Below are positions 1-17,990 of a DNA stretch of 64,000 nt, piece by piece (positions within the stretch are counted from its first letter, which is position 1; every line of letters begins with the position of its first letter). Source of the DNA: Patescibacteria group bacterium (lineage in GTDB: Bacteria; Patescibacteriota; Saccharimonadia; Saccharimonadales; CAYUUR01); NCBI GenBank assembly GCA_052034685.1, contig JBPOIH010000002.1, positions 7,738 through 71,737 of the forward strand, read 5' to 3'. The notes below the pieces were generated by a model, which saw nothing but the letters and a program-made list of their open reading frames with translations, did not search any database and was not told the origin of the DNA. The position numbers and the translations under genes were made by a program.

Positions 1-99
1 ATATTTAGTTTCCTCATCTTTTCCTTTAAAACCTTCTTATCGTCAAGTTCGTCCTGTTTAACAACCCGAGACTCGTGGCTTTTCATCAAGCTCTCCATC
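1..99 (-). CDS. 5' end of a CDS that continues beyond the window (MESLMKSHESRVVKQDELDDKKVLKEKMRKLNI...). It may be the frameshifted continuation of the upstream sensor gene.
   Basis: ATG at 99 (rc), preceded by AAGAGAG. The frame is open to nt 1. It starts 11 nt after the stop of 111..1220. Confidence 0.35.
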
Positions 100-110
100 T
101 CTCTTATATC

Positions 111-1220
111 TATCGAATTTGAGGTCGCATCTCCTGTACTAACAATGTATGGGCTGGATGAATTATTCGAGTTGATGGCAAACAGGCAGAACTCGACCTT
201 TATATACTTCTCGATAACCGCCCCCGACACGGATAGCAGATGACGCAAGTCAATGGTTGAAACAATCGCCTGGTTAAATTCGTTCAGAAGATCTTGAGAG
301 TCATAAGCGTCTTGGTAAAATAGCTGGTTGCTTTTCCGATTAAAATACTTCAGAAGAGGATTGAAGGTAAACGACAAAACTATAGCCAGCACAGCGTATA
401 CAATAGGTGCATACTTTGCGCTGTCTGAAAACAATCTTATGGCTTGATCCGCAAAAACAAACACAAAAATGCCTACCATCAGCCCAATACTGAGCGTCGA
501 TAAAATGTAACCGACGGAGCGCGCCACCAAAAAACGAATATCAAAGAAACGGTGCTTAATAATCGCATATGCCACCAGAATAGAGAATATCAGTACGGCG
601 AAATTGCCCAAAAGTAGCAATATTGAATCCGCCTGAACAATCCGTAAAAGAACTATTCCTGTAACTGCATTTGTCACTCCAACAATAAGTGTTGCGATTA
701 GCATAATTTTTAACTGGTTCTTTTCGTTAACTTCACGTGTTCTTTTATATTTCTTGATCAGGACGACTAAGCTCAAGAAAACCAATGCAAGACTCATTAG
801 ATCTGAAAAGTCATATAACGGACCAACATCAACCGGTAAAACTCCGTAGTCGAGAATCTCAACGCTTATTACGTTCAATTTCGTTAACGCCAAAGCCGAA
901 AACAGTCCGTAGAGCGATCCGACTATAATCTGCTTCCGCCTGTTGACACTACTGGTGTACGGAAAGACAAGGACAAGGTAATAGAGCATTAGTGGGACAA
1001 GCTGTCCAAACATTAACGCAAATCGTAAAGCCCAGAGGGCAACAATTTCCTGTGATGTGGTATCGCTAATGAATAGCAAAGTGAGCCATAAGCTGGATAT
1101 TAGGTTAAACGCTGCAAAGATTCGATTCTTAAGCCTTTTTGGGTCGTTTAAGAAAACGGCGAGCCCGATAAGGATCAATCCGATTATGGCAGGTATATAG
1201 GCAATTATCTTAAGAATCAT
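111..1220 (-). CDS. Polytopic membrane sensor-type protein (histidine-kinase N-terminal 7TM-like region plus the start of a GAF-like segment), 369 aa
   Basis: Missing from the ORF track and translated by hand: ATG 1220, TAG 111-113. The translation MILKIIAYIPAIIGLILIGLAVF... has about 7 hydrophobic helices, then KHRFFDIRFLVARS and a soluble tail. Confidence 0.6.
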
Positions 1221-1279
1221 CTTTGTTTTTCGTTGTTTTTACAAAGTTATTGTATCATGAGTGACTAAAGGTTTACACA

Positions 1280-2179
1280 ATGCAAATACAGAGAATTCCT
1301 GTGTTCCCAAATTTTTCAAAGCTTGATATTGCTCATCAAGAAGAGTTTGATCGACTGAGTAAAGATTTTGAACCATATGCAGAATTCAGCTTTCCTTGTC
1401 TTTTTTGCTGGGATACTGACGGAAGTACTCAATTATCGGTGTTGAACGGCAACCTGGTAATACGAATGCCTGACTATATTACTGGGGAGCCATTTTACTC
1501 ATTAATTGGTACGTCTATGATTGATGAATCTATGAATCAACTTCTTTCGATTACAGACTCTTTAAAACTAGTCCCAGAGGTAACAATCGATCATATCAAG
1601 CGAGCTGAGAACTTTGTTGTTACGGCCGATCGTGATCAATTTGACTATATATATTCACTTGATCAGTTAGTCAACTTACCTGGGGCACACTTCAAGGGTC
1701 GCCGAAACAAAAAGGGCCGATTCGTCAAGGTTTACGAAGATCAGCTGCATATCAGTAAGATCAAATTTGGGTCGTCCGAAACCATACCTCAACTTCTCAA
1801 TGTATTTGATCGATGGGCTAAACAACGCGGTAGGTCAATCAGTGAAGCCAGTCACGAGCGCTTGGCGCTATCACGGTTACTGACTGAGTCAACACGATTC
1901 AACTTAATTGGAATAGTCGTTGAGGTTGATGACGAAATTGTAGGATTTTCAATAAACGAGATTGTTCAAAAAAATTACGCCGTATGCCGATTTCAAAAAT
2001 CACTACTAGACATAGATCACTTGGACGCTTTTCTTTCAAACCTTGTTGCTGTTGAGTTAAAACACTACGGCTGCGATCTGATAAGCTGGGAGCAAGATCT
2101 TGGAATAGAAGGGTTGAGGCAATTTAAAGAGTCGTATAAGCCTGTTATGTTTCTTAAAAAATACACGGTTACAAAGTAG
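1280..2179 (+). CDS. Stand-alone DUF2156 protein (MprF C-terminal, aminoacyl-tRNA-dependent transferase-like fold)
   Basis: Family-typical blocks are present: FSKLDI...EFSFPCLFCWD and DRDQFDYIYSLDQLVNLPGAHFKGRRNKKGRF. Confidence 0.7.
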   Translation: MQIQRIPVFPNFSKLDIAHQEEFDRLSKDFEPYAEFSFPCLFCWDTDGSTQLSVLNGNLVIRMPDYITGEPFYSLIGTSMIDESMNQLLSITDSLKLVPEVTIDHIKRAENFVVTADRDQFDYIYSLDQLVNLPGAHFKGRRNKKGRFVKVYEDQLHISKIKFGSSETIPQLLNVFDRWAKQRGRSISEASHERLALSRLLTESTRFNLIGIVVEVDDEIVGFSINEIVQKNYAVCRFQKSLLDIDHLDAFLSNLVAVELKHYGCDLISWEQDLGIEGLRQFKESYKPVMFLKKYTVTK

Positions 2180-2181
2180 TC

Positions 2182-3297
2182 TTAGGCTACCTGCTGCTTA
2201 CTTAAAGCATAATACTCGATTGCACCCACGGGTTTATCCAGCCCACTGACTGTTGCCACACCACTTGCATTTATTGTGTCTGTAACAATATCCGGTATGT
2301 AGGTGGTACTTACTTCAGTGCACTCAAATGTAATTAGTAGGTCGGCTCCACGTTTGGCAGCCAGTTTGATACTGAAATCTACTACATCCGCAGAGTAGCG
2401 ATTTCCACGCCTAGACTCATCAGAAACTATGCCAGGGAAAATGAATATATTATTTGTAGCGTAGTACTCTTCATACTCTCTTTCAAACGCGCTCTTATTA
2501 AACCAAGGTGCTTTATTTATATCCTGTAAGAAAATCATCAAAGTTGTTATCTCGCCATCAACACGATTTACAACTTTTGCAATGTCTCGATCTTTTAGAA
2601 TATCGATTAATGCTTCCTTGTCAAACCCAGCCAGTGTCGGGTCATTCTCGCCCAATCCTTCAAATGGTTTTTCATAAAATGACCACACATGTTCAGCTTC
2701 ATCGCCCTCAATACTAGCCACAAGGGATGGGCCGTTTCTCGCATCTCTCTCGTAGATTCCCTCATCAAGCGCTTGCTCGTATGCCTCAAACATGGTTGGT
2801 GCAGTTGACACATTTTGCGCCCCACTATTAATAGCCACATGCCCTACAAAAAAATCTACCCTACTTTCGACGCCATCTTCTCCCCCAAATGCTTCAACCC
2901 TAAACCTTTGATCTAGTTTTGCCTCGCGTACAAGTTCAGCTATTGGACTTGCATTATCGTCACTATACTTTTCAGTAACAACCACTCCACCGCGCTCTAT
3001 AACTTCTTCAATCATTGATTTAACAGACTCGTGTGATTCCGCGTCAGCTGTAGGCGGGTGGACATAGCAGTAAATATCCGCATTTTTACCATAAGTCCTC
3101 TCTAGTAGAGCAGTGTTGTACCATTCAAGTGCCTCAACAGGTACAAGCACTGGGGCACTAACCTCATTTCCGTCCTGGTTTAGATAGTCGTAGTGTAAGG
3201 TTCCTGGGTTTTCTAATGCTCTTTCTAGATCTTCGCCAAAAATGCCGACAACTAGTATTTGATTATTCTCAGCCCTGTAATCGCTGTACTCGCTCAT
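2182..3297 (-). CDS. Acidic hypothetical protein; the C-terminal ~150 aa may have a GNAT-like fold
   Basis: ATG at 3297 is preceded by GGAGAG, 1 nt after the upstream stop. The motif FIFPGIVSDESRRGNRYSADVV resembles GNAT motif A. Confidence 0.55.
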   Translation of the reverse strand: MSEYSDYRAENNQILVVGIFGEDLERALENPGTLHYDYLNQDGNEVSAPVLVPVEALEWYNTALLERTYGKNADIYCYVHPPTADAESHESVKSMIEEVIERGGVVVTEKYSDDNASPIAELVREAKLDQRFRVEAFGGEDGVESRVDFFVGHVAINSGAQNVSTAPTMFEAYEQALDEGIYERDARNGPSLVASIEGDEAEHVWSFYEKPFEGLGENDPTLAGFDKEALIDILKDRDIAKVVNRVDGEITTLMIFLQDINKAPWFNKSAFEREYEEYYATNNIFIFPGIVSDESRRGNRYSADVVDFSIKLAAKRGADLLITFECTEVSTTYIPDIVTDTINASGVATVSGLDKPVGAIEYYALSKQQVA

Positions 3298-3298
3298 A

Positions 3299-4120
3299 TT
3301 ACTCTCCAACTTGGACTTTTCGCTTAATGTACTTATTATACATGCCCGTCACGCCGGCAAGCAGTAACAATCCACCAACTATTGTCTTTGGCACACCGAA
3401 AGAACCCAGGGCCTCTCCTGTCAAAACCCCTTCAGCCGTAAAGTACACACCCATACAACCTGCTGTCCTTAAGCCAGATACAACATTCTCCTCCTTGCTC
3501 CTTTCAGGATGCACAACTTGCTTTGCTGCTAGTAAAACCGCAGTTCCACCCACCATAGCAATAGCAGCACGTAAAGGTAATGGGATCTCCTTGTTACTTT
3601 CAAAATTCTTACCCGTAATTTTTTCAACACTCTGATGAACTTTCTCAAGAGCCTTTTTAGTACCTTTGCCACTTAAAACATCCGCAGCGACAACAGCAGC
3701 AAGACCTTCGATAGCAAATGTTGCTAATCCAAATGCAAACGCACTTGCAAGAGTGTTGCCTTGTGTGGCTTGGTAGGTTGCGCCGAAAACAGCATACCTA
3801 CTCGCTTCATTACCGAATGATGCTTCAAATGAAAGAAAGCCGGCCTGCAAAGTCCTTTTACTATAGTGAATTGGGTCGTTCTGTAGTGCCACTGCCGCAT
3901 ATTGCGCCCGATAGTTTACTGCTTGTGCGTGACCAACAATAAATGAGCCAGCTCTCGCGAGGAAGCCTTTGCTTACTGAATTGTCAGGGTTGTCCTGGTT
4001 AATCTCAACTATTGAGGCATTATTAATATCCAGCTCACTGACACTTTGAGACGGTATTTCTTTAAATGGGTCTAGATTTTCTTGCATAAATTTAACCTTG
4101 TCGATTGAGTTAAAAAACAC
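3299..4120 (-). CDS. Polytopic membrane protein, unknown function
   Basis: Long ORF with several hydrophobic segments, translationally coupled to 2182..3297. An alternative ATG lies at 4087. Confidence 0.55.
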   Translation of the reverse strand: MFFNSIDKVKFMQENLDPFKEIPSQSVSELDINNASIVEINQDNPDNSVSKGFLARAGSFIVGHAQAVNYRAQYAAVALQNDPIHYSKRTLQAGFLSFEASFGNEASRYAVFGATYQATQGNTLASAFAFGLATFAIEGLAAVVAADVLSGKGTKKALEKVHQSVEKITGKNFESNKEIPLPLRAAIAMVGGTAVLLAAKQVVHPERSKEENVVSGLRTAGCMGVYFTAEGVLTGEALGSFGVPKTIVGGLLLLAGVTGMYNKYIKRKVQVGE

Positions 4121-4222
4121 AGCTCCCTATCATAAGTGATAGCTCGCTGTGTTTTTCGTCTGAAAATGAACTTAGTACGACGTTGGATATGTTACTATAT
4201 TAATATGAAGTTGTCAATGTAG

Positions 4223-4253
4223 TTGACATTGGTGTAGTTATTTGGCATAGTAT
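4223..4253 (+). promoter_or_regulatory. Putative promoter of the Cys-repeat peptide gene
   Basis: A perfect TTGACA (4223-4228) sits within the inverted repeat TGTCAA-N5-TTGACA. An AT-rich -10 candidate (CATAGT/TAGTAT) lies 5-8 nt before ATG 4259, with no SD. Confidence 0.35.
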
Positions 4254-4258
4254 ATAAC

Positions 4259-4570
4259 ATGTTTAAAGAATTAAGACCTGGCACCCTAAACCGAAAGTTT
4301 ATCGCTATACCTCTGTCCGCGTTTTTTTTATTCAGCGCGCATGATACCCAATCGACAATATCGCCAAATTACGATCAGCAACAGCAAGAGGATATCAATA
4401 CAGATTTGAATAGGGTTTGTACGAATATCTATTTTGACAATCCGGATAGGTGTCAGCAAGCAGAAGACAAAACACACGATATCGGAAGTGATCCCATTTC
4501 AAACGCACAATCACTGGGAACAATTTGTACGAATATCTATTTTGACAATCCAGATAGGTGTCAGCAGTAA
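4259..4570 (+). CDS. Small secreted/anchored peptide with two identical C-x10-C repeats (CTNIYFDNPDRCQQ x2)
   Basis: N-terminal basic plus hydrophobic segment (KFIAIPLSAFFLFSA). Two 14-aa identical repeats are 36 aa apart, and the second ends the protein. Confidence 0.6.
   Translation: MFKELRPGTLNRKFIAIPLSAFFLFSAHDTQSTISPNYDQQQQEDINTDLNRVCTNIYFDNPDRCQQAEDKTHDIGSDPISNAQSLGTICTNIYFDNPDRCQQ
4417..4566 (+). repeat. Two 42-nt direct repeats (4417-4458 and 4525-4566; 1 mismatch, 108-nt period) encoding the Cys-bracketed motif
   Basis: ttgtacgaatatctattttgacaatcc(g/a)gataggtgtcagca was read directly in both places. Confidence 0.9.
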
Positions 4571-4587
4571 AACGTAAATTGACACGT

Positions 4588-5712
4588 TTACTCGGACAGG
4601 AAGATTTGGCTGGGTATTTGAAAGTCATTGAACGGAGCGCCATAAACAACTGTGTACGCACCAGCTGAGCCAAAATATACCTTGTCTCCAATCATAAGTG
4701 TCTCTGGCAAAAGTGCGTTATGCGTTATAGTGTCGCAAGAATCGCATGTCGGCCCAGTAAGAACATAGTTCGTTAGTTTGGCGTTTGGTCCATCTTTACT
4801 GGATGTTACCGGGTATTGAATACTATCTGACTCAAACATTTCGACAAATGCTTGAAACCGCCCAACATCTAGAAATAGCCAATCCTGATCTCCACGCCTG
4901 ACTTTACCAATTATTGACGATACAATCACACTACTTTCTGCCACCAAATAGCGTCCAGGCTCGCACCACAGATCAACTTCGTATGGCAGCTTAGCAACAT
5001 TTGCACGGATTCTTGCGGCAATATCCTCAATTGAAGGAATCGGCTGACAATGATCTACAGGGAAACCTCCCCCAATGTTTACCACTTTCATTTTGATGCC
5101 TGCCTTTAGCAACTCCTTCATAAGTTTTACTGTCCGCGAAAAAGCAGAGTCCCAAACTTCAAGACTTTCCGCTTGAGAGCCAACATGGAAAGCAATTCCT
5201 ATAGGCTCCAGTCCTTGCTTTCGTGCATAGGTTAAAATTGAGACAGCACTATCAATTGTGGCGCCAAACTTATCGCTTAGTTTTATCAAGCTACCTTTAT
5301 TCGATACGTTTATTCGCAAATATACTTTGCTGTGTGGTGCGTATTCGTGTAGCTTATCGACTTCCTCCGTTGAATCAACTGCATAAAATATGACTCCCTT
5401 ATCATAAGCCTGTTTTATATGACTAGGGATTTTTACTGGGTTACTGAAAATTACATCTCTTGGTTCTACATCCAGTTCGGTTAGGCGATCTAACTCACCG
5501 ATCGACGCAATCTCGAAACCACAACCTGTAGAATAAAGTCTCTTGAGGATAGGCTTAGCTGGACATGCCTTAACAGCGTAGTAAATCTTTGTATTGGGCA
5601 GGTTAGCCTTTAAGCCATAGAATTGCCGTTGAATATAATCGAGGTCAGTAACCATCAACGGAGTACTTGCAACACTACCCTTCAAGTATCGTGCATTAAG
5701 TCTGCTCGTCAT
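4588..5712 (-). CDS. PLP-dependent decarboxylase, ornithine/lysine/DAP decarboxylase family (fold type III)
   Basis: Motifs present: YYAVKACP (PLP lysine), GGGFPV, CEPGRYLVAES and GPTCDSCD. Confidence 0.85.
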   Translation of the reverse strand: MTSRLNARYLKGSVASTPLMVTDLDYIQRQFYGLKANLPNTKIYYAVKACPAKPILKRLYSTGCGFEIASIGELDRLTELDVEPRDVIFSNPVKIPSHIKQAYDKGVIFYAVDSTEEVDKLHEYAPHSKVYLRINVSNKGSLIKLSDKFGATIDSAVSILTYARKQGLEPIGIAFHVGSQAESLEVWDSAFSRTVKLMKELLKAGIKMKVVNIGGGFPVDHCQPIPSIEDIAARIRANVAKLPYEVDLWCEPGRYLVAESSVIVSSIIGKVRRGDQDWLFLDVGRFQAFVEMFESDSIQYPVTSSKDGPNAKLTNYVLTGPTCDSCDTITHNALLPETLMIGDKVYFGSAGAYTVVYGAPFNDFQIPSQIFLSE

Positions 5713-6671
5713 GTCTTGATTGTATCATCATGCCAAACATCTACTGGCCTGACACAATACATGCGCAAAAAGTTGGTAGGCGCTAACGACAACTTGATGT
5801 TTCTGAGTAATGGAAATCCCGAATCAGCCTCGATGTTTACAAATTTTACCCTCTCTTCTTTGAACCATCTTGCATACATATATATTGAAATCTCCATTAA
5901 ATATGGAAGTTCGTAACTAAAACGAGCATGTGACATTATCTTGTAATCGTCAGCAGGGCTATCTTGTAGAATCAAGAAACTATGTAGCTCTCCATCCAAA
6001 TACATGCCCAGTCCGTTAAAGCCAAGATCATTAGCCTTACGAATCGCAATCAACAGACAATCCTCTTCGTGTTTTGCGAAGTTATTCACGCCCCCCTTTA
6101 ACTTCCATCTGGAAACAAGCTCAATCAGCTCGTCAGCTTGATAAACCGAGCTCAGATCAAGCGGCGCAACTTTTATTCGCTCATTATTGTATTCATCTAG
6201 GAATCGCTTTAATTTCCACTGTTTGTGTCTTGGCAACGCATCAATATTGGCTAGTTGACGACAGTCCACAATACACTCATCGTGTTCACGCTCTGCAGTA
6301 AAGCGAAAGAGTTCTGGGTATCGGACTTGGCTAACCACATGTTCCGGGACATGAGTCAGACATTGCTTTTGTCCCTTTGACCGCTGAAAATCAAATACGG
6401 CGCAAAAAGTCTCATCGACATTATCGTTACCTAAAACCGTCAAGCCTGAATATTCATCATAACCTGGATACCACAAACATATCACCATGTTATTCCCGTG
6501 CATGGCAATTCTGCACGGCTCAAGCGCACTCCACCAAGTAAGTAAAGTACCGAAGCTTAGAGAAGCAGAAGGCTGAAATCGGCTACAAAATTGCTCGTAA
6601 AGCTCGCGGTCGGCAAGTGTGAGTTTGGTGAACTCAGGGAAGGTTTTGAAGTGAGAGGCACCTTTTTGCAT
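5709..6671 (-). CDS. Second, divergent stand-alone DUF2156 protein
   Basis: FPEFTKLTLADRELYEQF...SLSFGTLLTWW matches the N-terminal pattern of 1280..2179. ATG 6671 follows GGAG. Its 3' end makes an ATGA overlap with the decarboxylase start. Confidence 0.65.
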   Translation of the reverse strand: MQKGASHFKTFPEFTKLTLADRELYEQFCSRFQPSASLSFGTLLTWWSALEPCRIAMHGNNMVICLWYPGYDEYSGLTVLGNDNVDETFCAVFDFQRSKGQKQCLTHVPEHVVSQVRYPELFRFTAEREHDECIVDCRQLANIDALPRHKQWKLKRFLDEYNNERIKVAPLDLSSVYQADELIELVSRWKLKGGVNNFAKHEEDCLLIAIRKANDLGFNGLGMYLDGELHSFLILQDSPADDYKIMSHARFSYELPYLMEISIYMYARWFKEERVKFVNIEADSGFPLLRNIKLSLAPTNFLRMYCVRPVDVWHDDTIKT

Positions 6672-6770
6672 GATGGGCTCCAATTTGCACTTATCGTACT
6701 ATCTTTTGACAGGAATGAAAATTGCTTGTGCTAGACAGTATGTAATAACTGGTGCACAATAAAACTAAAG

Positions 6771-7136
6771 ATGAAACAAAAAGTCGCTGTTATCGAAGAT
6801 GATCTGCCAATCTGTGAGATGTATGAGTTCAAGCTACAAAACTCTGGGTTTGAGGTCAAGACGGCTCACAATGGACAGGATGGCTACAAGCTAGTAGAAG
6901 TCTTTAAGCCAGATCTTATTCTACTGGACCTCAAAATGCCCATCATGACGGGGGACGCCATGCTGCAAAAACTCCGCCAAACAGACTGGGGTGCTAACCT
7001 GCGCGTTATTATCCTGACAAATATTAGCCGCGACGAAGCACCGCACAGCCTCCGCTTCCTAAACGTTGACCGCTATATCGTCAAAGCACACCACACGCCG
7101 CAACAGGTAATAGATATCGTCAAAGAACTCATCTAG
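6771..7136 (+). CDS. Stand-alone response-regulator receiver domain protein (RR1)
   Basis: VAVIEDD...DLILLDLKMP...ILTN...KA is a CheY-like receiver. There is no output domain. Confidence 0.9.
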   Translation: MKQKVAVIEDDLPICEMYEFKLQNSGFEVKTAHNGQDGYKLVEVFKPDLILLDLKMPIMTGDAMLQKLRQTDWGANLRVIILTNISRDEAPHSLRFLNVDRYIVKAHHTPQQVIDIVKELI

Positions 7137-7233
7137 CAGTACGGCATTGTTTGAACTTTGGAGTACGACTCTCTCATCGTTTTCAGATTCTCCGAATTTA
7201 ATCACAAAGCTTAGCAATTGTTCAGAGTTTCAA

Positions 7234-7749
7234 TCACTTAGAAACTACTTTGTTAACCGCACTCCGCAATTTGCGGTTGCTCAATGCATAGATTGAGGTT
7301 AGCAATTCTAAATCACATCCATTCAAATCATTTGATGTTAGATTATTCTTTGGCCTAAAGATTGTGTGACCATACCTCAATATAATGCTTGTTATCAACG
7401 ATCTTTTGATAAGCTCTACGTTTACATCGGATGGTTCCGTAACCTTTTCTTCTATACCTAAAGTATCCGGGTTGATTTCACTGTTGAAGGCACAAGACTG
7501 TGGTATTTGCTCGAGGTTAGCCTTGGTAGCAACAAAAGAAATCTGTCTGCCCTGTGAGTCGTAAAGTTTAAAGTCGACATCCAGGATTGCTGTCCCGAAA
7601 TTATACACGTATTCAATGCTGTCGCTTATCTCATCGACAGAATAACCATCTTTATAACGATCAAGAAGGTAGTAGGGAGACTTTGTGTGGGAAGCTGCCA
7701 TGTTCATCATCTCCAGAATAACAAACTTCGCATAAATGAGTGTAACCAT
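7234..7749 (-). CDS. Hypothetical protein (171 aa) in the inserted segment
   Basis: ORF only, visibly more AT-rich than its flanks. An internal GGAG-ATG alternative start lies near 7701. Confidence 0.45.
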   Translation of the reverse strand: MVTLIYAKFVILEMMNMAASHTKSPYYLLDRYKDGYSVDEISDSIEYVYNFGTAILDVDFKLYDSQGRQISFVATKANLEQIPQSCAFNSEINPDTLGIEEKVTEPSDVNVELIKRSLITSIILRYGHTIFRPKNNLTSNDLNGCDLELLTSIYALSNRKLRSAVNKVVSK

Positions 7750-7807
7750 TCTATCGTACTGATTATCGCAAATTAAATACTATTGATATCGGGTCACTAT
7801 TATAAGC

Positions 7808-8224
7808 TCATTTTATGGACGTTTGTTGCGACGAATATGGCTCAAAATGTCGTACTTTGACAAGTGAACTTTTCCTCTTTAATAGCGCATTAATATTAAA
7901 CTTCTCTTTACCGACCTGCACTTTGTACGAGGTATGCTGTTTATCATACTCGTGAATTGTTATTTTTCCAGCAACCACATCATTAATTAGCTTTCTAAGA
8001 CTAGGGGCGAGTCGTTCAGGATGTTTTGGATTCTGGAACAATTCGATGGTGTAAGTATCATCGAAGAGGACTAGGGCTGTCCAGGGCTCAACATCAATTA
8101 CAATCTTACATGCATCACTGTTTAAAAGAGGGCTTACTTCAAGCCTTCCATCCGCACACTCAACTCGCGCCTTGTCTTCAAGGTTCTTTTTTAACTCCAA
8201 ACACAACTCGTTAAATGCTGTCAT
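7808..8224 (-). CDS. Hypothetical protein (138 aa) in the inserted segment
   Basis: ORF only; small soluble protein. Confidence 0.5.
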   Translation of the reverse strand: MTAFNELCLELKKNLEDKARVECADGRLEVSPLLNSDACKIVIDVEPWTALVLFDDTYTIELFQNPKHPERLAPSLRKLINDVVAGKITIHEYDKQHTSYKVQVGKEKFNINALLKRKSSLVKVRHFEPYSSQQTSIK

Positions 8225-8315
8225 TATGTATATGCTTCACTTTAATATATGATGGTTTATTGGAGATGAGAGTGGCTTTCATTGTTGTGGCTAGAATCTG
8301 ATAATAGTTATCATT

Positions 8316-8813
8316 CTACTTGTTTAATAGTTTGGAAAAAAATCCTCGTTTTTGTTTACGAATGTCGAGTAGCAGCCCTGATTTCAACTCTCTTCGTACA
8401 ATTCCTGGTGACTGTTGCACATTCCCAGTTTTAGTTATTTCGAAGTAGTATTTCTCGTCCTGACCAAGGATGACGCACCCGAAACTAGCGTCAGCGGTTA
8501 GTTCTTGTAGAAATGGAAGCTTCGAAAGTTGCGTCCCAATACTAATAAGTTGTTCTTCCGTACAATTACTTTTTTGAGGCATATCAACTTTAGTATTGAG
8601 GCTTATTTTCCCGTACTTCGTAGAATCATCATAAAATGCCGTTAGTGTGTCGCTTTGATAGTGCAGTGTGACCTCGACTTGTTTCTCAAAGTTACGCTCT
8701 CTTACACAATACGTAATTGGCACTTTTGACATTGCAATAAGTAGCAGGAGATTTTGGTCTAGTTTCAAAATCTGATTAACTTGGTGCTCTAGATTATTCG
8801 ACATTGTCTTCAT
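8316..8813 (-). CDS. Hypothetical protein (~165 aa) in the inserted segment
   Basis: ATG at 8813. The track's TTG start at 8834 would abut the response-regulator fragment. Confidence 0.45.
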   Translation of the reverse strand: MKTMSNNLEHQVNQILKLDQNLLLLIAMSKVPITYCVRERNFEKQVEVTLHYQSDTLTAFYDDSTKYGKISLNTKVDMPQKSNCTEEQLISIGTQLSKLPFLQELTADASFGCVILGQDEKYYFEITKTGNVQQSPGIVRRELKSGLLLDIRKQKRGFFSKLLNK

Positions 8814-8838
8814 TATCTCATAGGCAGTCGCCAAAATT

Positions 8839-8927
8839 GCCTACGCTTCCTAAATGTTGACCGCTACATCGTCAAGGCTCACCACACACCACAACAAGTC
8901 ATAGATATCGTCAAAGAACTTATCTGA
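8839..8927 (+). pseudogene. Displaced 3' end of a response-regulator gene (encodes LRFLNVDRYIVKAHHTPQQVIDIVKELI*)
   Basis: This 89-nt stretch aligns to 7048..7136. There are 10 substitutions, all third-codon-position synonymous, plus TGA in place of TAG. No upstream receiver sequence is present. Confidence 0.75.
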
Positions 8928-9989: not shown

Positions 9990-10289
9990 CTAGTCTGGCT
10001 GGACTGATCTACTCCTCAGGTAGCCTATGCAAACTCCCAGCCCGAGTGCAATAGTAATGTAATACGCCAAGCCAGCGCGAAGTTCTATGGACACTTTGTA
10101 ACCGTCTGTGACTGGTACCTTGGCAAGTTCAAGTAATTGTAATGGCCCGATTGCTACAATTTCATTCCCCGATGCGCTGGCCTGCGTCGAGCCCAAAACT
10201 GTCAATGCAAAGAAAATCAATGCAGCGAACAGTAGTGCCCCGATAATGCTGGTTGTGAGCGCTTTATATTGTTTTGATCTATCTAACAT
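9990..10289 (-). CDS. Small two-TM membrane protein, last gene of the peptide/ABC operon (immunity-like position)
   Basis: Two hydrophobic helices. Its start overlaps the upstream permease gene end (10279-10289). Confidence 0.5.
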   Translation of the reverse strand: MLDRSKQYKALTTSIIGALLFAALIFFALTVLGSTQASASGNEIVAIGPLQLLELAKVPVTDGYKVSIELRAGLAYYITIALGLGVCIGYLRSRSVQPD

Positions 10290-11616
10290 ATCCGTAACTC
10301 CTTTGTCGTTTTAATTCTATCAACCATACAACACCCTCAAACATGACTGCTAGCAACACAAAGCCCAGTACCTGCCCAGGTAGGGGAAAATATTTTCCCA
10401 TGACAAGGAGGCAGACGTACAACAAGCAGCCTCCGGCAATTACCGATAACAGTTGTCCGCCCGTATTATCTGGCGTGGAGGCAAATAGGCTGCCAGACAA
10501 AATGCCAATCGCCACAGCGAGCGATTGGAGTGCAATATAGGTAAAAATCATCCATAGCGGATCCCTGAGCGTAGCAAGCACAACAAAGAGGAGCGGTAAG
10601 CCCAGCAGTACGCTGAGTAACCTCAGCGATTGCAACTGCACCCGTACTAGGCTTCCCACTCCACTAAGATGTGCTTCTAACGATTTATACTTTCTAAAGG
10701 TGATGCGCGCATCGCAAAACACTGCCATAGTCATAAACGCAATCAGGTGCAAACAGTCTTCTACTGATATAGTTGCTGGGTTTTTTCTCATAAACAAAGC
10801 AGCTATACATAAGACAATGAGACTAAACACGAACGACGTCTGAGACTTTTTGTTGCGCAAGAACTTGATAGCGAACCAGAAATGCACGATGCAAAACTGT
10901 GGCCAACGCAGCCATACAGCCGGTAATCGGGCTCGGTACATGTACCGTTGCAAAAAAACAGCCGACAGAACTGCAATTAAAAGACAAACACCACACAGTA
11001 GGTACACATAGTTGAGCATGGCTATGTTAGATTGCGTAATGAATACCTTGTTTATTATGCGCCCCATACCGTATACCACTAGCCCAAAACTCGCGAACTT
11101 TAGGAAGAAGTAGCGCGTATAGGTAGCCGTTACTAAAGCCAGGCAACTAAAACAACCGAGTGCCAAAGTCAGCATAGTAAACACACTTGAAACTGAGTTA
11201 ACACCAGCAATGTAAAGCGCTGCAGGCATGAGGAAAATATAGCCAACAACGGCGAGTAGAAGCGCAGAGATATTGTGAAGTAAGTACCTTTTAGGTCGAG
11301 ATACTGGCAGCAGTGCGAGTACTTTAAGTGAGTTATTGTTTCGCAGTTCCACCATGCCGCTTGCACCAAAGGAAAATAAGACCAATCCAGTAACCAGGAA
11401 GCCGAAGATTGTAATCATCGCTAGTACAAGACCCTGCGGTAGATCGCCACTAATCCCCATTGTCCGTATAAACTCACGTGCACAAAACCCAAGTACGCCC
11501 GCAGCAATACAGCTAAATCCAAGCTTATAGGCGGCCGCCTGAGCTGGAGATGAGGCGTTTGCACCAAAGGTACTAATGATTACCGTTCGTAGAAGCATGC
11601 TAATCTTCCAGCCCAT
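10279..11616 (-). CDS. Polytopic permease (445 aa, about 10-12 TM), partner of the ABC ATPase
   Basis: Highly hydrophobic throughout. It overlaps the ATPase gene by 17 nt. Confidence 0.65.
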   Translation of the reverse strand: MGWKISMLLRTVIISTFGANASSPAQAAAYKLGFSCIAAGVLGFCAREFIRTMGISGDLPQGLVLAMITIFGFLVTGLVLFSFGASGMVELRNNNSLKVLALLPVSRPKRYLLHNISALLLAVVGYIFLMPAALYIAGVNSVSSVFTMLTLALGCFSCLALVTATYTRYFFLKFASFGLVVYGMGRIINKVFITQSNIAMLNYVYLLCGVCLLIAVLSAVFLQRYMYRARLPAVWLRWPQFCIVHFWFAIKFLRNKKSQTSFVFSLIVLCIAALFMRKNPATISVEDCLHLIAFMTMAVFCDARITFRKYKSLEAHLSGVGSLVRVQLQSLRLLSVLLGLPLLFVVLATLRDPLWMIFTYIALQSLAVAIGILSGSLFASTPDNTGGQLLSVIAGGCLLYVCLLVMGKYFPLPGQVLGFVLLAVMFEGVVWLIELKRQRSYGYVR

Positions 11617-12328
11617 ATACTTGTTTGAATTTGTTTTCTAAACTCCCATGATCAGCTAGAACATTCGCTGTGTCGTCAGCGTAGACTAACCTTCCAGCAT
11701 GTATCATCAATGTCTGGTCAGAAAATCTTTCTGCCCACCATAGATCATGCGTAGATGCCAGCACGCTACCCTGATTGTTTACAAAATCCTTCATAAGACG
11801 TTCCACTTGAATGATTGCCACTGGGTCAAGTCCATTGCGGAGCTCATCAACAATCAAAACTTTTGGTTGATGTGCCAGTGCAGCGATAATTTGCAGTTTC
11901 TTCTTATTTCCATGACTAAGGGACCCGATCTGTAAGCGCCGATTCTTAAAATCTAATTGGTCGCAAAGTTGATTAATGCGTTTGTCAACCCCACGGCCGT
12001 AGATGTCAGAGAGCAAAACAAAAAACTCATCAGCGCAAAGTTCTGGTATTACCCAGTTATCATCGTCAGGGATAAACCCCATAATCGAATTGATACGTTT
12101 TTGGGTTTTAAAGGACGATTCTATGCCGCAGATCCTAACGCGCCCACTATACGCCGATATTAATCCCACCACTGCTTCAATAAGCGTTGTTTTACCGCTG
12201 CCGTTCGCACCGACAAGGCAAGTTACCTTGCCCTTTTGTAGCCGCACATTATCGACTTGTAGGGTGAAGTTCTTGCTCCGGTTAATAGTGAGGTTCTCGA
12301 TCACTAAAACATTACTACTTTGTCTCAT
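11600..12328 (-). CDS. ABC transporter ATP-binding protein (ABC-2/DrrA-like)
   Basis: Walker A GANGSGKTT, signature LSHGNKKKL and Walker B LIVDE. Confidence 0.9.
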   Translation of the reverse strand: MRQSSNVLVIENLTINRSKNFTLQVDNVRLQKGKVTCLVGANGSGKTTLIEAVVGLISAYSGRVRICGIESSFKTQKRINSIMGFIPDDDNWVIPELCADEFFVLLSDIYGRGVDKRINQLCDQLDFKNRRLQIGSLSHGNKKKLQIIAALAHQPKVLIVDELRNGLDPVAIIQVERLMKDFVNNQGSVLASTHDLWWAERFSDQTLMIHAGRLVYADDTANVLADHGSLENKFKQVYGLED

Positions 12329-13666: not shown

Positions 13667-14038
13667 ATGTCAGTCAAAATCGCCATTATTGAAGACGATC
13701 AAGCGATTTCTCAAATGTACCGTATTAAGTTTGAGGCGGAAGGTTATAGTGTGGAAACCGCCGAAAACGGCAAGCTCGGGCTAGAACTCTGTGAAAAGAT
13801 GCGCCCAGAGATCATACTGCTCGACCTGATGATGCCAGAAATGACCGGAGACGTCATGCTCGACAAACTCCGTAAAACCACCTGGGGCAAAAGCATCAAG
13901 GTTGTTATCCTTACCAACATGGGCGAACAAGAAATTCCTGAAAGCGTCAAAAAGCTTGGTGTTTCTGCGGTAATCCTCAAGGCCGATATGACGCCGCGCC
14001 AGGTTGCAGAACTCGTCAAAAAACAACTCGGAAACTAA
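13667..14038 (+). CDS. Stand-alone response-regulator receiver domain protein (RR3)
   Basis: IAIIEDDQAISQMY...IILLDLMMP...ILTN...KA. Confidence 0.9.
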   Translation: MSVKIAIIEDDQAISQMYRIKFEAEGYSVETAENGKLGLELCEKMRPEIILLDLMMPEMTGDVMLDKLRKTTWGKSIKVVILTNMGEQEIPESVKKLGVSAVILKADMTPRQVAELVKKQLGN

Positions 14039-14042
14039 CAAC

Positions 14043-15374
14043 ATGAAGATTGCTATCCTTGGCTTTGCTAGTCAGGGCCGTGCCGCCTACGAATATTGGA
14101 AGAGCCCTGATAACCAGATAACCATCTGTGATTCACGCGATTCAATTGATATACCTGATGATACGACGCCACAACTTGGGGCAGATTATCTGCAAGGTCT
14201 AGACCAGTTTGATCTGATTGTGCGGGGAGCACCAATTATCCACCCACGCGACATAATTGCAGCAAACTCACCGGAGATTGTAGCCAAGGTCACGTCTGCA
14301 ACCAATGAGTTCTTCCGCGTGTGCCCAAGCAAAAATATCATCGGCGTGACCGGTACCAAGGGCAAAGGTACGACATCTACACTGATTGCCCGCTTGCTAG
14401 AAGCTGCTGGCAAAAAGGTGCATTTGGGCGGCAACATCGGCATACCGCCGCTTGATATGCTGAAGGGCAACATCCAGCCAGAAGATTGGGTCGTGCTAGA
14501 ACTAGCCAACTACCAACTGATTGACCTTAAATACTCCCCCGCAACTGCAGTCTGCTTGATGGTTGTGCCTGAACACCTTGATTGGCATACTGACATGGAA
14601 GAATACGTAGAGTCAAAACAACAGCTATTTAAGTATCAGACGCACGAAGACCGCGCAATTTATAACCGCAATAACCAGTATTCGCAAGATGTCGTCAGCG
14701 TATCTATGGCAGCCAAGCAATCATATGAAGTGCCAGGGCCGGGAGCAGAACCAACCGAACGCAGAGGCGCATATGTAATGGATGACCTCGTATACATGGA
14801 CAATGTGGCAGTTTGTCACACCGGTGACGTCAAGCTACTTGGCCGGCATAACCTCGAAAACGTTTGTGCTGCTCTGGCAACAACCTGGGAGCTTATCAAC
14901 CAAGACGCAAGTTTATTTAAACAAGTGGTGAGCGAATTCAGCGGGTTAGAGCATCGTTTAGAGCTCGTCCGTGAACTAGACGGCGTCAAGTACTACGACG
15001 ATTCTTTTGGGACAACACCAGAGACCGCAACGGTGGCAATCCAGGCTTTTGAGCAACCCAAAGTTATAATTCTAGGTGGATCAGACAAAGGCGCAACCTA
15101 TGATGAACTGGCCCACGCCGTGGCATCAAACAATGTTAAGCATGTAGTACTCATCGGCAAAACTGGGCCAGCAATCAAGGCAGCATTACAAACAGCTGGC
15201 TTTGATGACATCAGTGACGGCGGCGAATCCATGCCAGAGATTGTAGCAACAGCACAACGCCTCGCTGAACCCGGAGATATTGTGTTGTTATCTACGGCTT
15301 GTGCAAGTTTTGATATGTTTGAAAACTATCAGGACCGAGGCGAACAGTTCAAGCGCGCGGCTCAATCTCTGTAA
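14043..15374 (+). CDS. murD: UDP-N-acetylmuramoylalanine--D-glutamate ligase
   Basis: MKIAILGFASQG... and GVTGTKGKGTTS show Mur ligase architecture. ATG 14043 is preferred over the track's start at 14004. Confidence 0.9.
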   Translation: MKIAILGFASQGRAAYEYWKSPDNQITICDSRDSIDIPDDTTPQLGADYLQGLDQFDLIVRGAPIIHPRDIIAANSPEIVAKVTSATNEFFRVCPSKNIIGVTGTKGKGTTSTLIARLLEAAGKKVHLGGNIGIPPLDMLKGNIQPEDWVVLELANYQLIDLKYSPATAVCLMVVPEHLDWHTDMEEYVESKQQLFKYQTHEDRAIYNRNNQYSQDVVSVSMAAKQSYEVPGPGAEPTERRGAYVMDDLVYMDNVAVCHTGDVKLLGRHNLENVCAALATTWELINQDASLFKQVVSEFSGLEHRLELVRELDGVKYYDDSFGTTPETATVAIQAFEQPKVIILGGSDKGATYDELAHAVASNNVKHVVLIGKTGPAIKAALQTAGFDDISDGGESMPEIVATAQRLAEPGDIVLLSTACASFDMFENYQDRGEQFKRAAQSL

Positions 15375-16035
15375 GTAAACGTTCTACCTGACGCACTACA
15401 GCTGCTTCTGGTTGGACTACAATTGCCTTGTTGCCTACTGCTGCTTTTATCTCTTCTTCTATCCAGTGGTAATGTGTGCAGCCAAGCACGATAACATCAG
15501 CACCTGCCTGCAGGGCTGATTCCAAACCTGTGTCAATGTGTTGTCTGTTAATGAGGTTGTTTTCTATCAGATAGGACCAGTTACTGCAATCAGGCTCAAT
15601 AACAGTGATACCCTCTGCGTACTCTTGTTTGAGCCAAGCATACCGCGGACTAGCCAGCGTTGTTGGTGTGGCGCAGACTGCAATCACTTTGGTCTTTGTC
15701 GATGCAACGGCCGGCTTGACCATTGGCTCTACCGCAACAAGCGGGACAGGAATAATGGTTCTGAGCTCTTCAATCAGCGTCGTGCTAACAGTGTTGCAGG
15801 CAACCACAATGACGTCACAGCCATCAGCAGCCAAGCTTTGTAGTATTGGCACAACAAAGCCTTTTATCTCTTCTGGGGTACGCGTTGCATACGGCACGTG
15901 TTCGACGTCATTACGGAACAGGACCTGATGTTCGGGCAAAGCTGCTTCAATCGCGTTGGCAACTGACTTGCCGCCAACCCCAGAATCAAACACACCTATC
16001 TTAGACATTTGCATACCGCCATAACTCTGAGTCAT
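15349..16035 (-). CDS. murI: Glutamate racemase
   Basis: VFDSGVGG, ACNT and GCTHY motifs. The true start is possibly ATG 16008. Confidence 0.85.
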   Translation of the reverse strand: MTQSYGGMQMSKIGVFDSGVGGKSVANAIEAALPEHQVLFRNDVEHVPYATRTPEEIKGFVVPILQSLAADGCDVIVVACNTVSTTLIEELRTIIPVPLVAVEPMVKPAVASTKTKVIAVCATPTTLASPRYAWLKQEYAEGITVIEPDCSNWSYLIENNLINRQHIDTGLESALQAGADVIVLGCTHYHWIEEEIKAAVGNKAIVVQPEAAVVRQVERLLTEIEPRA

Positions 16036-16609
16036 CCGGTAGCATATTGGGGATGGATAATACTTCTAGTGTATGCAAACGCAACCGAGACGCGTCTGAT
16101 TGTAGTAAGGCCGGGTCACCACGATGCGCAATACTGAAGAAATCAATATCTTTACCAGTCATCTCTTCCATTGCCAGCATACCGTTCAGCGAAGTGAACT
16201 TAGTGCTGAAATCGTCAACCATAACAATACGCTGTGCCGCGGCAAGCGCACGCCTATCATTTGCGCGCAGTGGAGAAAAGCGCTTGATGCCGCGCAGCGC
16301 GTCTTCTTTACGAAAGTATAATACGGGTATGCGGTACGTGGGAGCCAGCTCATCACTCAGTCCTTCAGCAAACCGCGTGCCACCATTAGGAATACCACAG
16401 ATGTAGTCAACGTCAGACAGATCGGGAACTTCTTCAATAACTTGCGCTTTCATACGGCGCACCGTCCGCATAAAGAACGGACTTCCTTGCACAATTCGGT
16501 CGGCTTCTAGTTTGTTATTTGCCGCTTCGCCACTGGCAAATGGCTCGTCTGTCACAGGATCACGACGCTCAAGACACGTTACGAGCAGTTCCTCGCGAAA
16601 ACTAAGCAT
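16001..16609 (-). CDS. Type I phosphoribosyltransferase family protein (PyrE-like)
   Basis: ICGIPNGG and the PRPP-binding-like IVMVDDFSTKFTS. Confidence 0.55.
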   Translation of the reverse strand: MLSFREELLVTCLERRDPVTDEPFASGEAANNKLEADRIVQGSPFFMRTVRRMKAQVIEEVPDLSDVDYICGIPNGGTRFAEGLSDELAPTYRIPVLYFRKEDALRGIKRFSPLRANDRRALAAAQRIVMVDDFSTKFTSLNGMLAMEEMTGKDIDFFSIAHRGDPALLQSDASRLRLHTLEVLSIPNMLPDDSELWRYANV

Positions 16610-17420
16610 TGTCCACCACGGCGCGTGCGGCGCGAATTACGTTATCAAAAAGTGCTGTTACGGTGAGCGGTCCAACACCGCCCTTTTCTGGCGTAATCTT
16701 GATGTTAGGCATATCCCGAACAGACGGGGCAACATCCCCTATCAGTCCGTTCTTGTCAGTTGCCACACCGGCATCAACAACCACCGCATCATCCTTAACC
16801 ATATCCGTAGTAATTAAGCCAGGGACACCAGTGGCACTGACAATAACATCGGCCTCGCGCAGTTTTTCTGGCAAATCAGGCGTTTGTTTGTCGGCCACTA
16901 ATACATCGTAATCAGAATGTGACCATAGCTTGGCGAGTGGACGGCCAACCAGGCGGCCATGCCCCACAATCACAATCTTCTTGCCAGCAGATAGCTCAAC
17001 ATTATAACCAGCAAGCAACCAGCTAATCGCTATAGGCGTAGGCGCATCATAGATAGCTTCACTGCTCAGACCGTCAACATCTTTTTCTGCAGCGACAGCG
17101 TTGAGAATATCATCTGTCTGCGTGGGGTCTGGGAGTGGAATCTGCACAATAATGCCATGCACTGATTCATCTTCATTCAGTTGCTTGATACGGTCAAGTG
17201 CTTCAGCTTGGTCGATGGTGTGCACATCTACCGCCACGCCAATCTCTTCGCCATAGTTTTGTTTGAGCTGCATGTAGCGATCAACAATTGGGTCCGGGTT
17301 GGTCCTTATGATTGCGAGCTTGGGCTGCAACTGGTCTGCTTGCACCAAGGCACGCACCTGTTTTGCTTGGCGCTCTTTGATGTATTCGGCCAGATCTTTG
17401 CCATTTAACAACTTTGTCAT
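16602..17420 (-). CDS. folD: Bifunctional methylenetetrahydrofolate dehydrogenase/cyclohydrolase
   Basis: LNGKDLAEYIK..., VQIPLP and VIVGHGRLVGRPLA. Confidence 0.9.
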   Translation of the reverse strand: MTKLLNGKDLAEYIKERQAKQVRALVQADQLQPKLAIIRTNPDPIVDRYMQLKQNYGEEIGVAVDVHTIDQAEALDRIKQLNEDESVHGIIVQIPLPDPTQTDDILNAVAAEKDVDGLSSEAIYDAPTPIAISWLLAGYNVELSAGKKIVIVGHGRLVGRPLAKLWSHSDYDVLVADKQTPDLPEKLREADVIVSATGVPGLITTDMVKDDAVVVDAGVATDKNGLIGDVAPSVRDMPNIKITPEKGGVGPLTVTALFDNVIRAARAVVDNA

Positions 17421-17472: not shown

Positions 17473-17495
17473 TTTTGCTGTTTGCTTTGCGCTAT

Positions 17496-17990
17496 TTAGG
17501 CAGCTACAGGTGCTTTTGGTTTTGCAGAACCACCTGGCTTGCCACCAGGGCCTACGTACTTTGCGTCACCAAAGGCGAAGTATAGAACTCCAACAATTGG
17601 TACGAAGAACAGCAATGCGTAGATTGGCTCTTTACCAAAGGACTTAGCTAGTTCAATACAGATAATAATCGTAACCGCGAGACTGGCAAGATAACCAACA
17701 AATGGAACCCAAGAGATGAGCCATACAAGTGACCACCAACCTGGCTTACCAGCGATTTCACAGAGAACCCAGTAGTTATAGAAAGGAATCAAGACCTTCC
17801 AGCCTTCGACACCGGCCTTTTCAAAAATCTTCCAACCAGCAACAACACTGACCACGAGAATGACGAGGTAAAAAATCAGGAAGAATCCGCTAAAAATAGC
17901 CAATCCTGCAAGACCTGCCTTATCGTCTGCCGTTAATGTTGTGTTGTCATACGTATATGTCGTATACGTCTGAGCAAGTAAATTGAGCAT
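17496..17990 (-). CDS. DUF5684-like small membrane protein
   Basis: GWKIFEKAG..GWKVLIPFYNYWVLCEIAGKPGWW. Confidence 0.6.
   Translation of the reverse strand: MLNLLAQTYTTYTYDNTTLTADDKAGLAGLAIFSGFFLIFYLVILVVSVVAGWKIFEKAGVEGWKVLIPFYNYWVLCEIAGKPGWWSLVWLISWVPFVGYLASLAVTIIICIELAKSFGKEPIYALLFFVPIVGVLYFAFGDAKYVGPGGKPGGSAKPKAPVAA

Follow-up and report, generated by a model that had tools for sequence, protein, structure and literature searches.

The described systems closest to the gene module reported here are MprF (aminoacyl-phosphatidylglycerol synthase, aaPGS), free-standing enzymes of the same DUF2156 family, Fem-like transferases, tandem-GNAT acyl-CoA enzymes, and amino acid decarboxylases of two unrelated kinds. 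The module lies near the start of a 64,000-nt stretch of Saccharibacteria DNA (contig JBPOIH010000002.1, positions 7,738 to 71,737; hereafter the window), where it combines a decarboxylase, a highly acidic protein with two GNAT folds, a membrane protein, and two stand-alone DUF2156 proteins (DUF2156-A and DUF2156-B), bracketed by two-component regulatory genes. Saccharibacteria are obligate epibionts with a minimal metabolism, in which most biosynthetic pathways are missing and the building and tuning of the envelope are little understood. The building blocks of the module belong to known superfamilies; the gene combination, the acidic tandem-GNAT family, and the displacement of one decarboxylase by another are undescribed. 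The literature searched yielded nothing linking DUF2156 with Saccharibacteria or with a decarboxylase, nothing relevant on Saccharibacteria with agmatine or MprF, and nothing on aminoacyl-tRNA with agmatine, in agreement with the first-pass annotation of this DNA, which had recognized no described pathway.

Like MprF, DUF2156-A and DUF2156-B belong to Pfam family PF09924 and are predicted to combine a double-GNAT fold with a basic inter-domain segment, and in relatives of the window a fused membrane and tandem-GNAT protein copies the overall MprF layout. Unlike in MprF, the DUF2156 proteins here are soluble and free-standing, without a flippase domain; the membrane module is attached to the other tandem-GNAT protein, with no sequence-level homology; and the genes are linked to an amino acid decarboxylase, which is not reported for MprF. 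ErgS (ergosteryl-glycine synthase) is likewise a free-standing DUF2156 enzyme that uses aminoacyl-tRNA from a separate synthetase (PMC8913301), but ErgS and ErdS are fungal, have a sterol hydroxyl as acceptor, and are not accompanied by genes for a decarboxylase, a second tandem-GNAT protein, or a two-component system. The Fem-like enzymes VlmA, DhpH/DhpK, PacB, and Orf11/Sbb17 form amides by transfer from tRNA to an amine, which is the reaction type proposed here (PMC12945691); however, they belong to the FemABX sequence family rather than DUF2156, reside in actinomycete antibiotic clusters, and are not described as accepting agmatine, putrescine, or cadaverine. The two-GNAT proteins MshD, MAB_4324, VipF, and the clavulanate protein 2wpw are similar in size to the acidic protein and give its best TM-scores (0.40–0.43), whereas the acidic family has no detectable sequence homology to these acyl-CoA enzymes, appears to lack a canonical acyl-CoA loop, and is set apart by its uniformly high acidity, its conserved Cys, and its frequent fusion to a membrane module. 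As for the decarboxylases, the eukaryote-type lysine/ornithine decarboxylases (L/ODCs) of Selenomonas ruminantium and Vibrio vulnificus align end-to-end with the window enzyme, with the catalytic residues all kept, and pyruvoyl-dependent arginine decarboxylase (PvlArgDC; archaeal PdaD, Chlamydia AaxB) is the family that fills the same genomic slot in relatives of the window. Unlike the enzymes encoded here, the known decarboxylases serve polyamine synthesis, peptidoglycan-bound cadaverine, or acid resistance, and we know of no such decarboxylase coupled to GNAT-fold transferases.

The locus and its conservation across Saccharibacteria

All five genes named in the first-pass annotation are present where it had placed them, all of its family calls pass profile searches, and its chosen starts at 3297 and 6671 agree with the entries in the protein collection (P0008 and P0045). 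The features of the module and its immediate flanks are:

3..1220, minus strand: seven-transmembrane (7TM) histidine kinase, N-terminal sensor part (PF16927 HisKA_7TM, 8.8e-11)
1280..2179, plus strand: DUF2156-A, stand-alone LPG_synthase_C-type double-GNAT protein, 299 aa
2182..3297, minus strand: acidic tandem-GNAT protein, 371 aa, ATG start, on record as P0008
3299..4120, minus strand: membrane module, 273 aa, assigned by hydropathy
4121..4258: intergenic region between the membrane/tandem-GNAT unit and the small open reading frame (ORF), with back-to-back promoter-like hexamers
4259..4570, plus strand: small ORF, 103 aa, between the two minus-strand units, gene status uncertain
4588..5712, minus strand: pyridoxal 5'-phosphate (PLP) decarboxylase, fold-type III, ornithine/lysine type (PF02784 + PF00278)
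5709..6671, minus strand: DUF2156-B, second stand-alone DUF2156 protein, 320-aa form on record as P0045
6771..7136, plus strand: single-domain response regulator, 121 aa (PF00072, 1.4e-17), module boundary

The proposed ATGA overlap between the DUF2156-B stop and the decarboxylase start is present in the sequence at 5712..5709, as is the coupled unit of membrane and acidic genes, in which the membrane TAA and the acidic ATG are separated by one base (t), with GGAG 6 nt upstream. The stops of DUF2156-A and the acidic gene, read from the sequence, converge across a gap of 2 nt. The first-pass annotation had overlooked the small plus-strand ORF that separates the minus-strand units (4259..4570), as well as the bracketing HisKA_7TM kinase and receiver-only regulator; the two-component genes belong in the picture. 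The small ORF is lineage-specific and encodes a hydrophobic N-terminal segment and a CTNIYFDNPDRCQQ motif repeated twice; it has no family match in Pfam, forms a singleton cluster in the protein collection, and is seen in no related locus other than L007.

Related loci were gathered from six homologues of the acidic protein, from a scan of one genome per species (15 loci), from the genomic contexts of DUF2156-B and decarboxylase homologues, and from a metagenome scan with the DUF2156-B alignment; all were annotated with one script, and L007, which is 100% identical to the window, was counted together with it. The 15 loci of the species scan are all from Saccharibacteria, save one 2.7-kb contig binned as Gammaproteobacteria. 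On this contig (L021; CAZSUZ010000069.1, "uncultured Gammaproteobacteria"), the acidic gene, DUF2156-A, and the 7TM kinase follow one another as they usually do in Saccharibacteria, and the bin assignment is probably wrong.

The genes are co-localized in related Saccharibacteria genomes, with the recurrent order receiver-only regulator(s), decarboxylase, membrane module (separate, fused, or absent) plus acidic tandem-GNAT, DUF2156-A, and HisKA_7TM kinase. A DUF2156 gene lies within ~2 kb in 20 of 20 non-redundant acidic-gene loci, and a decarboxylase gene neighbors the acidic tandem-GNAT gene in 18 of these 20, usually immediately upstream on the same strand and often with a spacer of just 3–12 nt; in some loci, the membrane gene or a few short ORFs lie in between. 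The linkage is kept among proteins only 24–55% identical, and the gene set persists despite changes of order and strand (L011, L012, L016). Thus, the adjacency of decarboxylase and DUF2156 genes noticed in the window is real, but the tightest linkage of the decarboxylase is with the acidic tandem-GNAT gene, and its association with DUF2156-B is looser.

The decarboxylase slot holds a PvlArgDC (PF01862, with an NCBIfam match) in 15 loci and a PLP enzyme in three (window/L007, L025, L037), and hence shows non-orthologous displacement. The two decarboxylases have nothing in common except that each yields a cationic primary amine, and the presence of the unrelated PvlArgDC in the slot in 15 genomes lends strong comparative support to the earlier suggestion that the amine is tied to the transferases. 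In L026, a PLP decarboxylase lies beside DUF2156-A, together with a different small acidic protein. Some genomes have both decarboxylase types near the locus: in L001, an ODC-type (ornithine decarboxylase) PLP decarboxylase gene (17484–17863) lies 7.6 kb downstream of the PvlArgDC-bearing module. The window itself contains no PvlArgDC remnant (best tblastn E-value 0.93).

The window departs from most relatives twice, in the PLP ornithine/lysine-type enzyme that occupies the slot and in the type-B DUF2156 gene upstream of the decarboxylase (an order of DUF2156-B then ODC that recurs in L025, L037, L039, L043, and L056). Its layout of two DUF2156 genes and a PLP decarboxylase is a minority form of the wider module. 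Accordingly, the two soluble DUF2156 copies on which the first-pass annotation had centered are both present but are not the defining trait, which in most genomes is one type-A DUF2156 with the acidic tandem-GNAT protein.

The encoded proteins

The PLP decarboxylase is confirmed as a member of the family of ODCs and diaminopimelate (DAP) decarboxylases (PF02784, 189 bits, 1.2e-55; PF00278, 50.9 bits, 2e-13), and its top PDB matches are the L/ODCs of Selenomonas (5gjo, 1e-61) and Vibrio (2plj, 7e-58), followed by eukaryotic ODCs. In alignments to T. brucei ODC and bacterial L/ODCs, the residues numbered in T. brucei as K69, E94, R154, H197, GGG, E274, R277, D332, C360, D361, and Y389 are all kept. 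The catalytic set, which also takes in the HxGS, GGGFP, and EPGR motifs and the Cys-Asp pair contributed by the partner subunit, has a sole change, D88 to Glu. D332 and D361, which bind the distal amine, are both among the retained residues. An ornithine- or lysine-type substrate is most likely, because D332 is kept at a position where the arginine decarboxylase of Chlorella virus carries Glu instead; putrescine or cadaverine would be the product. Identity as a DAP decarboxylase was rejected (LysA, TIGR01048, 181.7 against a cut-off of 297.9; PDB matches to DAP decarboxylases 1e-31 or weaker), and the enzyme scores far below the cut-offs of the DokD, FslC, nspC, and speA NCBIfam equivalogs. 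A look-up of its exact sequence for genomic context found nothing on record.

The acidic protein (pI 4.3, net charge -37) has no Pfam or NCBIfam family match, and when it and the membrane protein were compared with Pfam, NCBIfam, and PDB sequences, nothing above noise emerged (Pesticin 0.18, holin 0.004, procollagen enhancer 0.12). The first-pass annotation had seen a GNAT-like C-terminus in this protein; the GNAT call is upheld, but structure prediction and Foldseek reveal two consecutive GNAT folds that span the whole protein. The AlphaFold2 (AF2) model, built with 34 homologues, is of high confidence (pLDDT 91.2, pTM 0.87), and the 50 PDB matches listed by Foldseek are all GNAT-fold, mostly two-GNAT enzymes (probability 1.0, E down to 3e-7, TM-scores only 0.3–0.46); those listed include MAB_4324, VipF, MshD, the clavulanate tandem-GNAT protein, N-myristoyltransferase, FemX, and DUF2156. 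FemX is only a structural neighbor (TM-score 0.40), and none of the three GNAT-fold proteins of the window matches the FemAB Pfam family. The possibility that the acidic protein is a diverged DUF2156 was rejected (hhalign against the DUF2156-A alignment, 0.1% probability; no PF09924 match).

An exhaustive profile search places the acidic protein in a family of 656 clusters at 50% identity, 159 of them at E <= 1e-30, and it founds an unannotated tandem-GNAT family. Among 160 near-full members, 113 stand alone, 46 have an N-terminal extension (the membrane module; fused forms are 600–690 aa), and one has a C-terminal DUF2156 domain. This last protein (P0276) is an end-to-end fusion of the acidic tandem-GNAT (E 1e-33) and a complete domain of the DUF2156-A type (E 1e-42; Pfam 1.2e-17). 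All 160 have an acidic pI (4.15–5.99), which fits a cationic ligand, and the absence of a basic helix from the family (best 20-mer net charge +3) speaks against a role in binding tRNA. The conserved core comprises W265 (100%), P49, Y208, P220, C326 (94%), F324, S330, and D293; in the C-terminal GNAT of the AF2 model, D293 ends beta4, C326 ends beta5, and S330 lies just after beta5. GNAT enzymes usually carry their catalytic residues at these positions. In MshD (mycothiol synthase), catalysis is confined to the C-terminal GNAT domain, and it is likewise in the C-terminal GNAT that much of the acidic family's strongest conservation is found. No member passes a Pfam GNAT model, and two distant members have weak matches to Acetyltransf_1 (0.003 and 0.04). 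The acidic tandem-GNAT protein is predicted to be an acyltransferase for a cationic substrate.

Both DUF2156 calls hold against the PF09924 cut-off of 27.5 bits, at 88.9 bits for A (E 4e-25, profile positions 8–297 of 298) and 37.8 bits for B (E 1.5e-9, positions 12–297 of 298), and both proteins consist of the DUF2156 domain alone, without a fused flippase domain. Their nearest solved relative is PDB 2hqy (6.5e-16 for A, 5e-8 for B), a free-standing Bacteroides DUF2156 protein that aligns end-to-end with B and over residues 109–296 with A. Lys/Arg-rich segments at 131–150 in A (VNLPGAHFKGRRNKKGRFVK) and 137–156 in B align, in a comparison at the sequence level only, to KGKKFQAKRNHINRFR of 2hqy. 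A positively charged helix between the GNAT halves of DUF2156 is the proposed tRNA-binding element (PMC7334510), and such a basic segment between two GNAT domains appears to be present in both A and B. By family, DUF2156-A is a predicted aminoacyl-tRNA-dependent transferase.

The two proteins are, by family alignment, true but old and distant paralogues (hhalign of A family against B family, E 5e-35, 23% identity); B as a recent duplicate of A is ruled out by the 23–24% identity, the separate family, and the different neighborhoods. Orthologues of DUF2156-A (36–51% identity) adjoin the acidic gene in ~18 loci. The DUF2156-B family comprises 15 close proteins, always located between the regulators and the kinase and often in arrays of one to three paralogues; the second copy in the window was correctly assigned to DUF2156, but it belongs to a different cassette family from A. 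Membrane-fused and free-standing DUF2156 proteins both occur in some Saccharibacteria, as in L004, where a 725-aa protein with DUF998 (membrane) and LPG_synthase_C domains (1–1737, minus strand) is encoded 6 kb from the module. In L024 (9352–10845), a DUF2156-B homologue has as neighbors a PlsC-type acyltransferase and a protein of 274 aa that weakly matches (E 0.0034) the N-acyl amino acid synthase FeeM, a hint that acylated amino compounds may be products of other cassettes at this locus as well.

The membrane protein has three to four weakly hydrophobic Gly/Ala-rich helices by hydropathy, and no Pfam or NCBIfam match, including none to the MprF membrane/flippase domain. In the AF2 model of a fused relative (P0017), the membrane module forms a helical bundle whose last helix continues into the GNAT domains. 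A fold search with this model is dominated by GNAT matches, and its structural neighbors include Sbb17 in complex with streptothrisamine. The window's membrane protein has a Lys/Arg-rich end (NKYIKRKVQ), which suggests a cytoplasmic orientation of the GNAT part.

Candidate chemistry and alternative explanations

We consider it possible, although somewhat short of an even chance, that these genes form a Saccharibacteria-specific module in which the product of the decarboxylase is acylated and/or aminoacylated by two GNAT-fold transferases at the inner face of the membrane. We infer the amine as acceptor, aminoacyl-tRNA as donor, the order of steps, and the product from the gene content. In the first step, the decarboxylase would yield a cationic primary amine (putrescine or cadaverine in the window, agmatine in most relatives). 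The acidic tandem-GNAT protein, tethered to the cytoplasmic membrane face by the co-translated (elsewhere fused) helical module, would then bind the amine cation, and its C-terminal GNAT may carry out acyl transfer with the conserved Asp, Cys, and Ser and a Pro just after beta5. The stand-alone DUF2156 proteins would supply or add an aminoacyl group from aminoacyl-tRNA, such that the end product might be an N-aminoacyl and/or N-acyl conjugate of a diamine or agmatine, made at or inserted into the membrane, while the flanking 7TM kinase and receiver-only regulators would control the module or sense its product. It is a tentative suggestion that aminoacyl-tRNA serves as a ready-made activated donor for a new class of agmatine or diamine conjugates, aminoacylated and perhaps acylated further, that would be built at the membrane; equally tentative is the notion that such a conjugate would serve as a cationic constituent of the surface or membrane, or would act as a signal for the adjacent 7TM kinase.

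An amine-acylating pathway is the most economical reading because two unrelated decarboxylases share one slot and one kind of product, and because that slot is tied to a very acidic tandem-GNAT protein that is itself linked, and once fused, to DUF2156. It is also supported by the complete catalytic set of the window's decarboxylase, including D332 and D361, and by the kinases: the sensor domain of the window kinase is 34–42% identical to those of same-cassette loci, as against 23–28% over the full length for kinases of other-cassette loci. The acidity of the tandem-GNAT family, its lack of a basic helix, and the Lys/Arg-rich segment retained in both DUF2156 proteins also count in favor of this reading. 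There is precedent for the reaction type in double-GNAT enzymes that catalyze aminoacyl-tRNA-dependent N-aminoacylation of small-molecule amines (VlmA, DhpH/K, PacB, Orf11; PMC12945691).

Several observations weigh against this pathway. Characterized DUF2156 enzymes all acylate lipid hydroxyls, not amines (PMC6103681; PMC7334510; PMC8913301). Many DUF2156-B loci are without any decarboxylase, and DUF2156 function therefore does not need one; two acidic-family loci (L015 and L047) likewise have no decarboxylase in the available sequence. The beta4-alpha3 loop of the acidic protein (D293-E-S-R-R-G298-N-R-Y) is not a canonical acyl-CoA motif, matching Q/R-x-x-G-x-G/A only at Gly, and weak Pfam GNAT matches (Acetyltransf_CG, best E 0.023) occur in just three of 34 members. 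The P0276 fusion is a single representative cluster and is possibly an assembly or frameshift artefact. Lastly, the locus adjoins murD and murI in a recombination hotspot, so that some of the linkage could be positional.

Rather unlikely, in our estimation, is a split MprF-like system for lipid remodeling, in which DUF2156 would O-aminoacylate a membrane lipid (possibly host-derived) from aminoacyl-tRNA and the membrane-tethered acidic tandem-GNAT protein would N-acylate the cationic aminoacyl head group or edit it in some other way, with the decarboxylase co-regulated but separate, for example supplying polyamines or consuming protons during acid or envelope stress. In its favor, all characterized DUF2156 enzymes, the free-standing ErgS among them, have lipid acceptors (PMC8913301; PMC6103681); lysyl-phosphatidylglycerol is recorded as being N-succinylated, by an unnamed enzyme (PMC6103681); the head group of a Lys- or Arg-lipid, being cationic, would likewise be a fitting target for an acidic enzyme; and many DUF2156-B loci are without a decarboxylase. 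The combination of a membrane module with a C-terminal double-GNAT is the MprF layout, and full-length MprF (9goe_A) is match no. 2 of the fused model, with 610 columns aligned; however, the TM-score is only 0.24, there is no Pfam flippase match, and the membrane module is missing from L004, L005, L008, and L012. Such lipid remodeling also leaves unexplained why two unrelated decarboxylases are encoded directly upstream of the tandem-GNAT protein, often within 3–12 nt.

We judge it improbable that the genes share no pathway at all, the regulator-to-kinase interval being a hotspot that gathers unrelated accessory genes: a decarboxylase for polyamines or acid resistance, an acidic GNAT that could be a polyamine N-acetyltransferase, and an independent DUF2156. 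That the locus is a recombination hotspot follows from the near relative L022 (response regulator 97% and DUF2156-B 85% identical to the window), in which the cassette is swapped 50 nt before the end of gene B. The DNA of L022 and the window is 82–86% identical across both response regulator genes (RR2 and RR1) and DUF2156-B, and the match ends at 5758, 50 nt before the DUF2156-B stop; past this break point, L022 encodes another membrane protein, PvlArgDC, an unrelated protein of 333 aa, and a divergent kinase. B-type loci carry various unrelated genes without assigned function, and the proteins encoded there (the 333-aa protein of L022; 256-, 348-, and 211-aa proteins of L023) show no similarity to the acidic family or to each other. 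A duplicated response regulator fragment of 87 nt, which brackets another variable insert in the window, also favors an accessory-gene hotspot. Such a hotspot does not account for a three-gene linkage that outlasts 24–55% divergence and changes of order and strand, for the existence of the P0276 fusion, or for a decarboxylase slot that is refilled by an analogue, not lost.

Modification of the cell wall, whether by FemX-like action of DUF2156 on peptidoglycan precursors or by placement of a diamine or agmatine on peptidoglycan, coordinated with murD and murI, is very improbable: murD and murI do occupy a conserved backbone adjoining the regulators, FemX does appear as a structural neighbor, and the nearest solved relative of the decarboxylase is the Selenomonas L/ODC, which supplies peptidoglycan-bound cadaverine (cadaverine or putrescine ends up on peptidoglycan in Selenomonas and Veillonella), but joining an amine to a peptidoglycan carboxyl requires carboxyl activation that GNAT-fold enzymes do not give, there is no FemAB Pfam match, and murD and murI are not in some module loci (L005, L022) and are 7 kb distant in the window.

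The module is of interest as one that is conserved across Saccharibacteria together with a sizeable unannotated family (~656 clusters), and in which transferases of a tRNA-dependent type are tied to an amine-forming step, as in no characterized DUF2156 system. The swapping of cassettes between near relatives further suggests that the locus experiences diversifying pressure, such as would be expected of a surface or host-interaction trait. If a cationic amine conjugate were indeed the product, tRNA-dependent envelope remodeling would extend past lipid hydroxyl acceptors, free-standing bacterial DUF2156 proteins (including the long-unassigned 2hqy type) would gain a testable function, these would be the first DUF2156 enzymes in an amine-centered pathway, and the acidic tandem-GNAT protein would represent a new enzyme class.

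Flanking genes and variation at the locus

The kinase gene runs off the window start (open frame 1238..3) and is complete in L007; an orthologous full-length 7TM kinase comes after DUF2156 in every related locus. At the other end, the response regulator at 6771..7136 is a receiver only, with no output domain, and one to three such receiver-only regulators flank the module in nearly all loci. Farther downstream in the window are:

7234..7749, 7808..8224, and 8316..8834, minus strand: three insert ORFs, no family match
13667..14038: third receiver-only response regulator
14004..15374: murD (326.7 bits, cut-off 211.95)
15349..16035: murI, glutamate racemase (147.8, cut-off 146.65)
Between murI and folD: 202-aa ORF, no function assigned
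16602..17420: folD, outer backbone

The outer backbone of folD, murI, and murD also flanks the module in L001, L002, L004, L006, and L026. Between the module and this backbone, the window has a segment (10279–13170, minus strand) with an ATP-binding cassette (ABC) transporter ATPase gene (11600..12328) flanked by 445-aa and 281-aa ORFs that have no Pfam or NCBIfam match; the segment was not seen in the other loci examined.

In the intergenic region at 4121..4258, the hexamer pairs are TTGACA-17-TAACAT on the minus strand (4217..4189) and TTGACA-17-CATAGT on the plus strand (4223..4251). Promoter-like matches in this region are no more numerous than expected from shuffled sequence, and promoter and terminator scans gave counts at or below the shuffled expectation, so that gene spacing is the only basis for the operon boundaries.

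The last 87 nt of the response regulator gene are duplicated (7048–7134 and 8839–8925, 89% identical), and the copies bracket a 1.7-kb insert (7137–8838) that looks like an insertion or recombination scar. In L022, the same interval encodes GreA, a methyltransferase, and a CYTH protein. L022 also has two B-type genes in tandem; the 5' end of DUF2156-B in the window (6588–6671) aligns with the first (5037–5119), and the rest of the gene with the second (5998–6890). This alignment suggests that a tandem pair of B genes may have collapsed to one gene in the lineage of the window.

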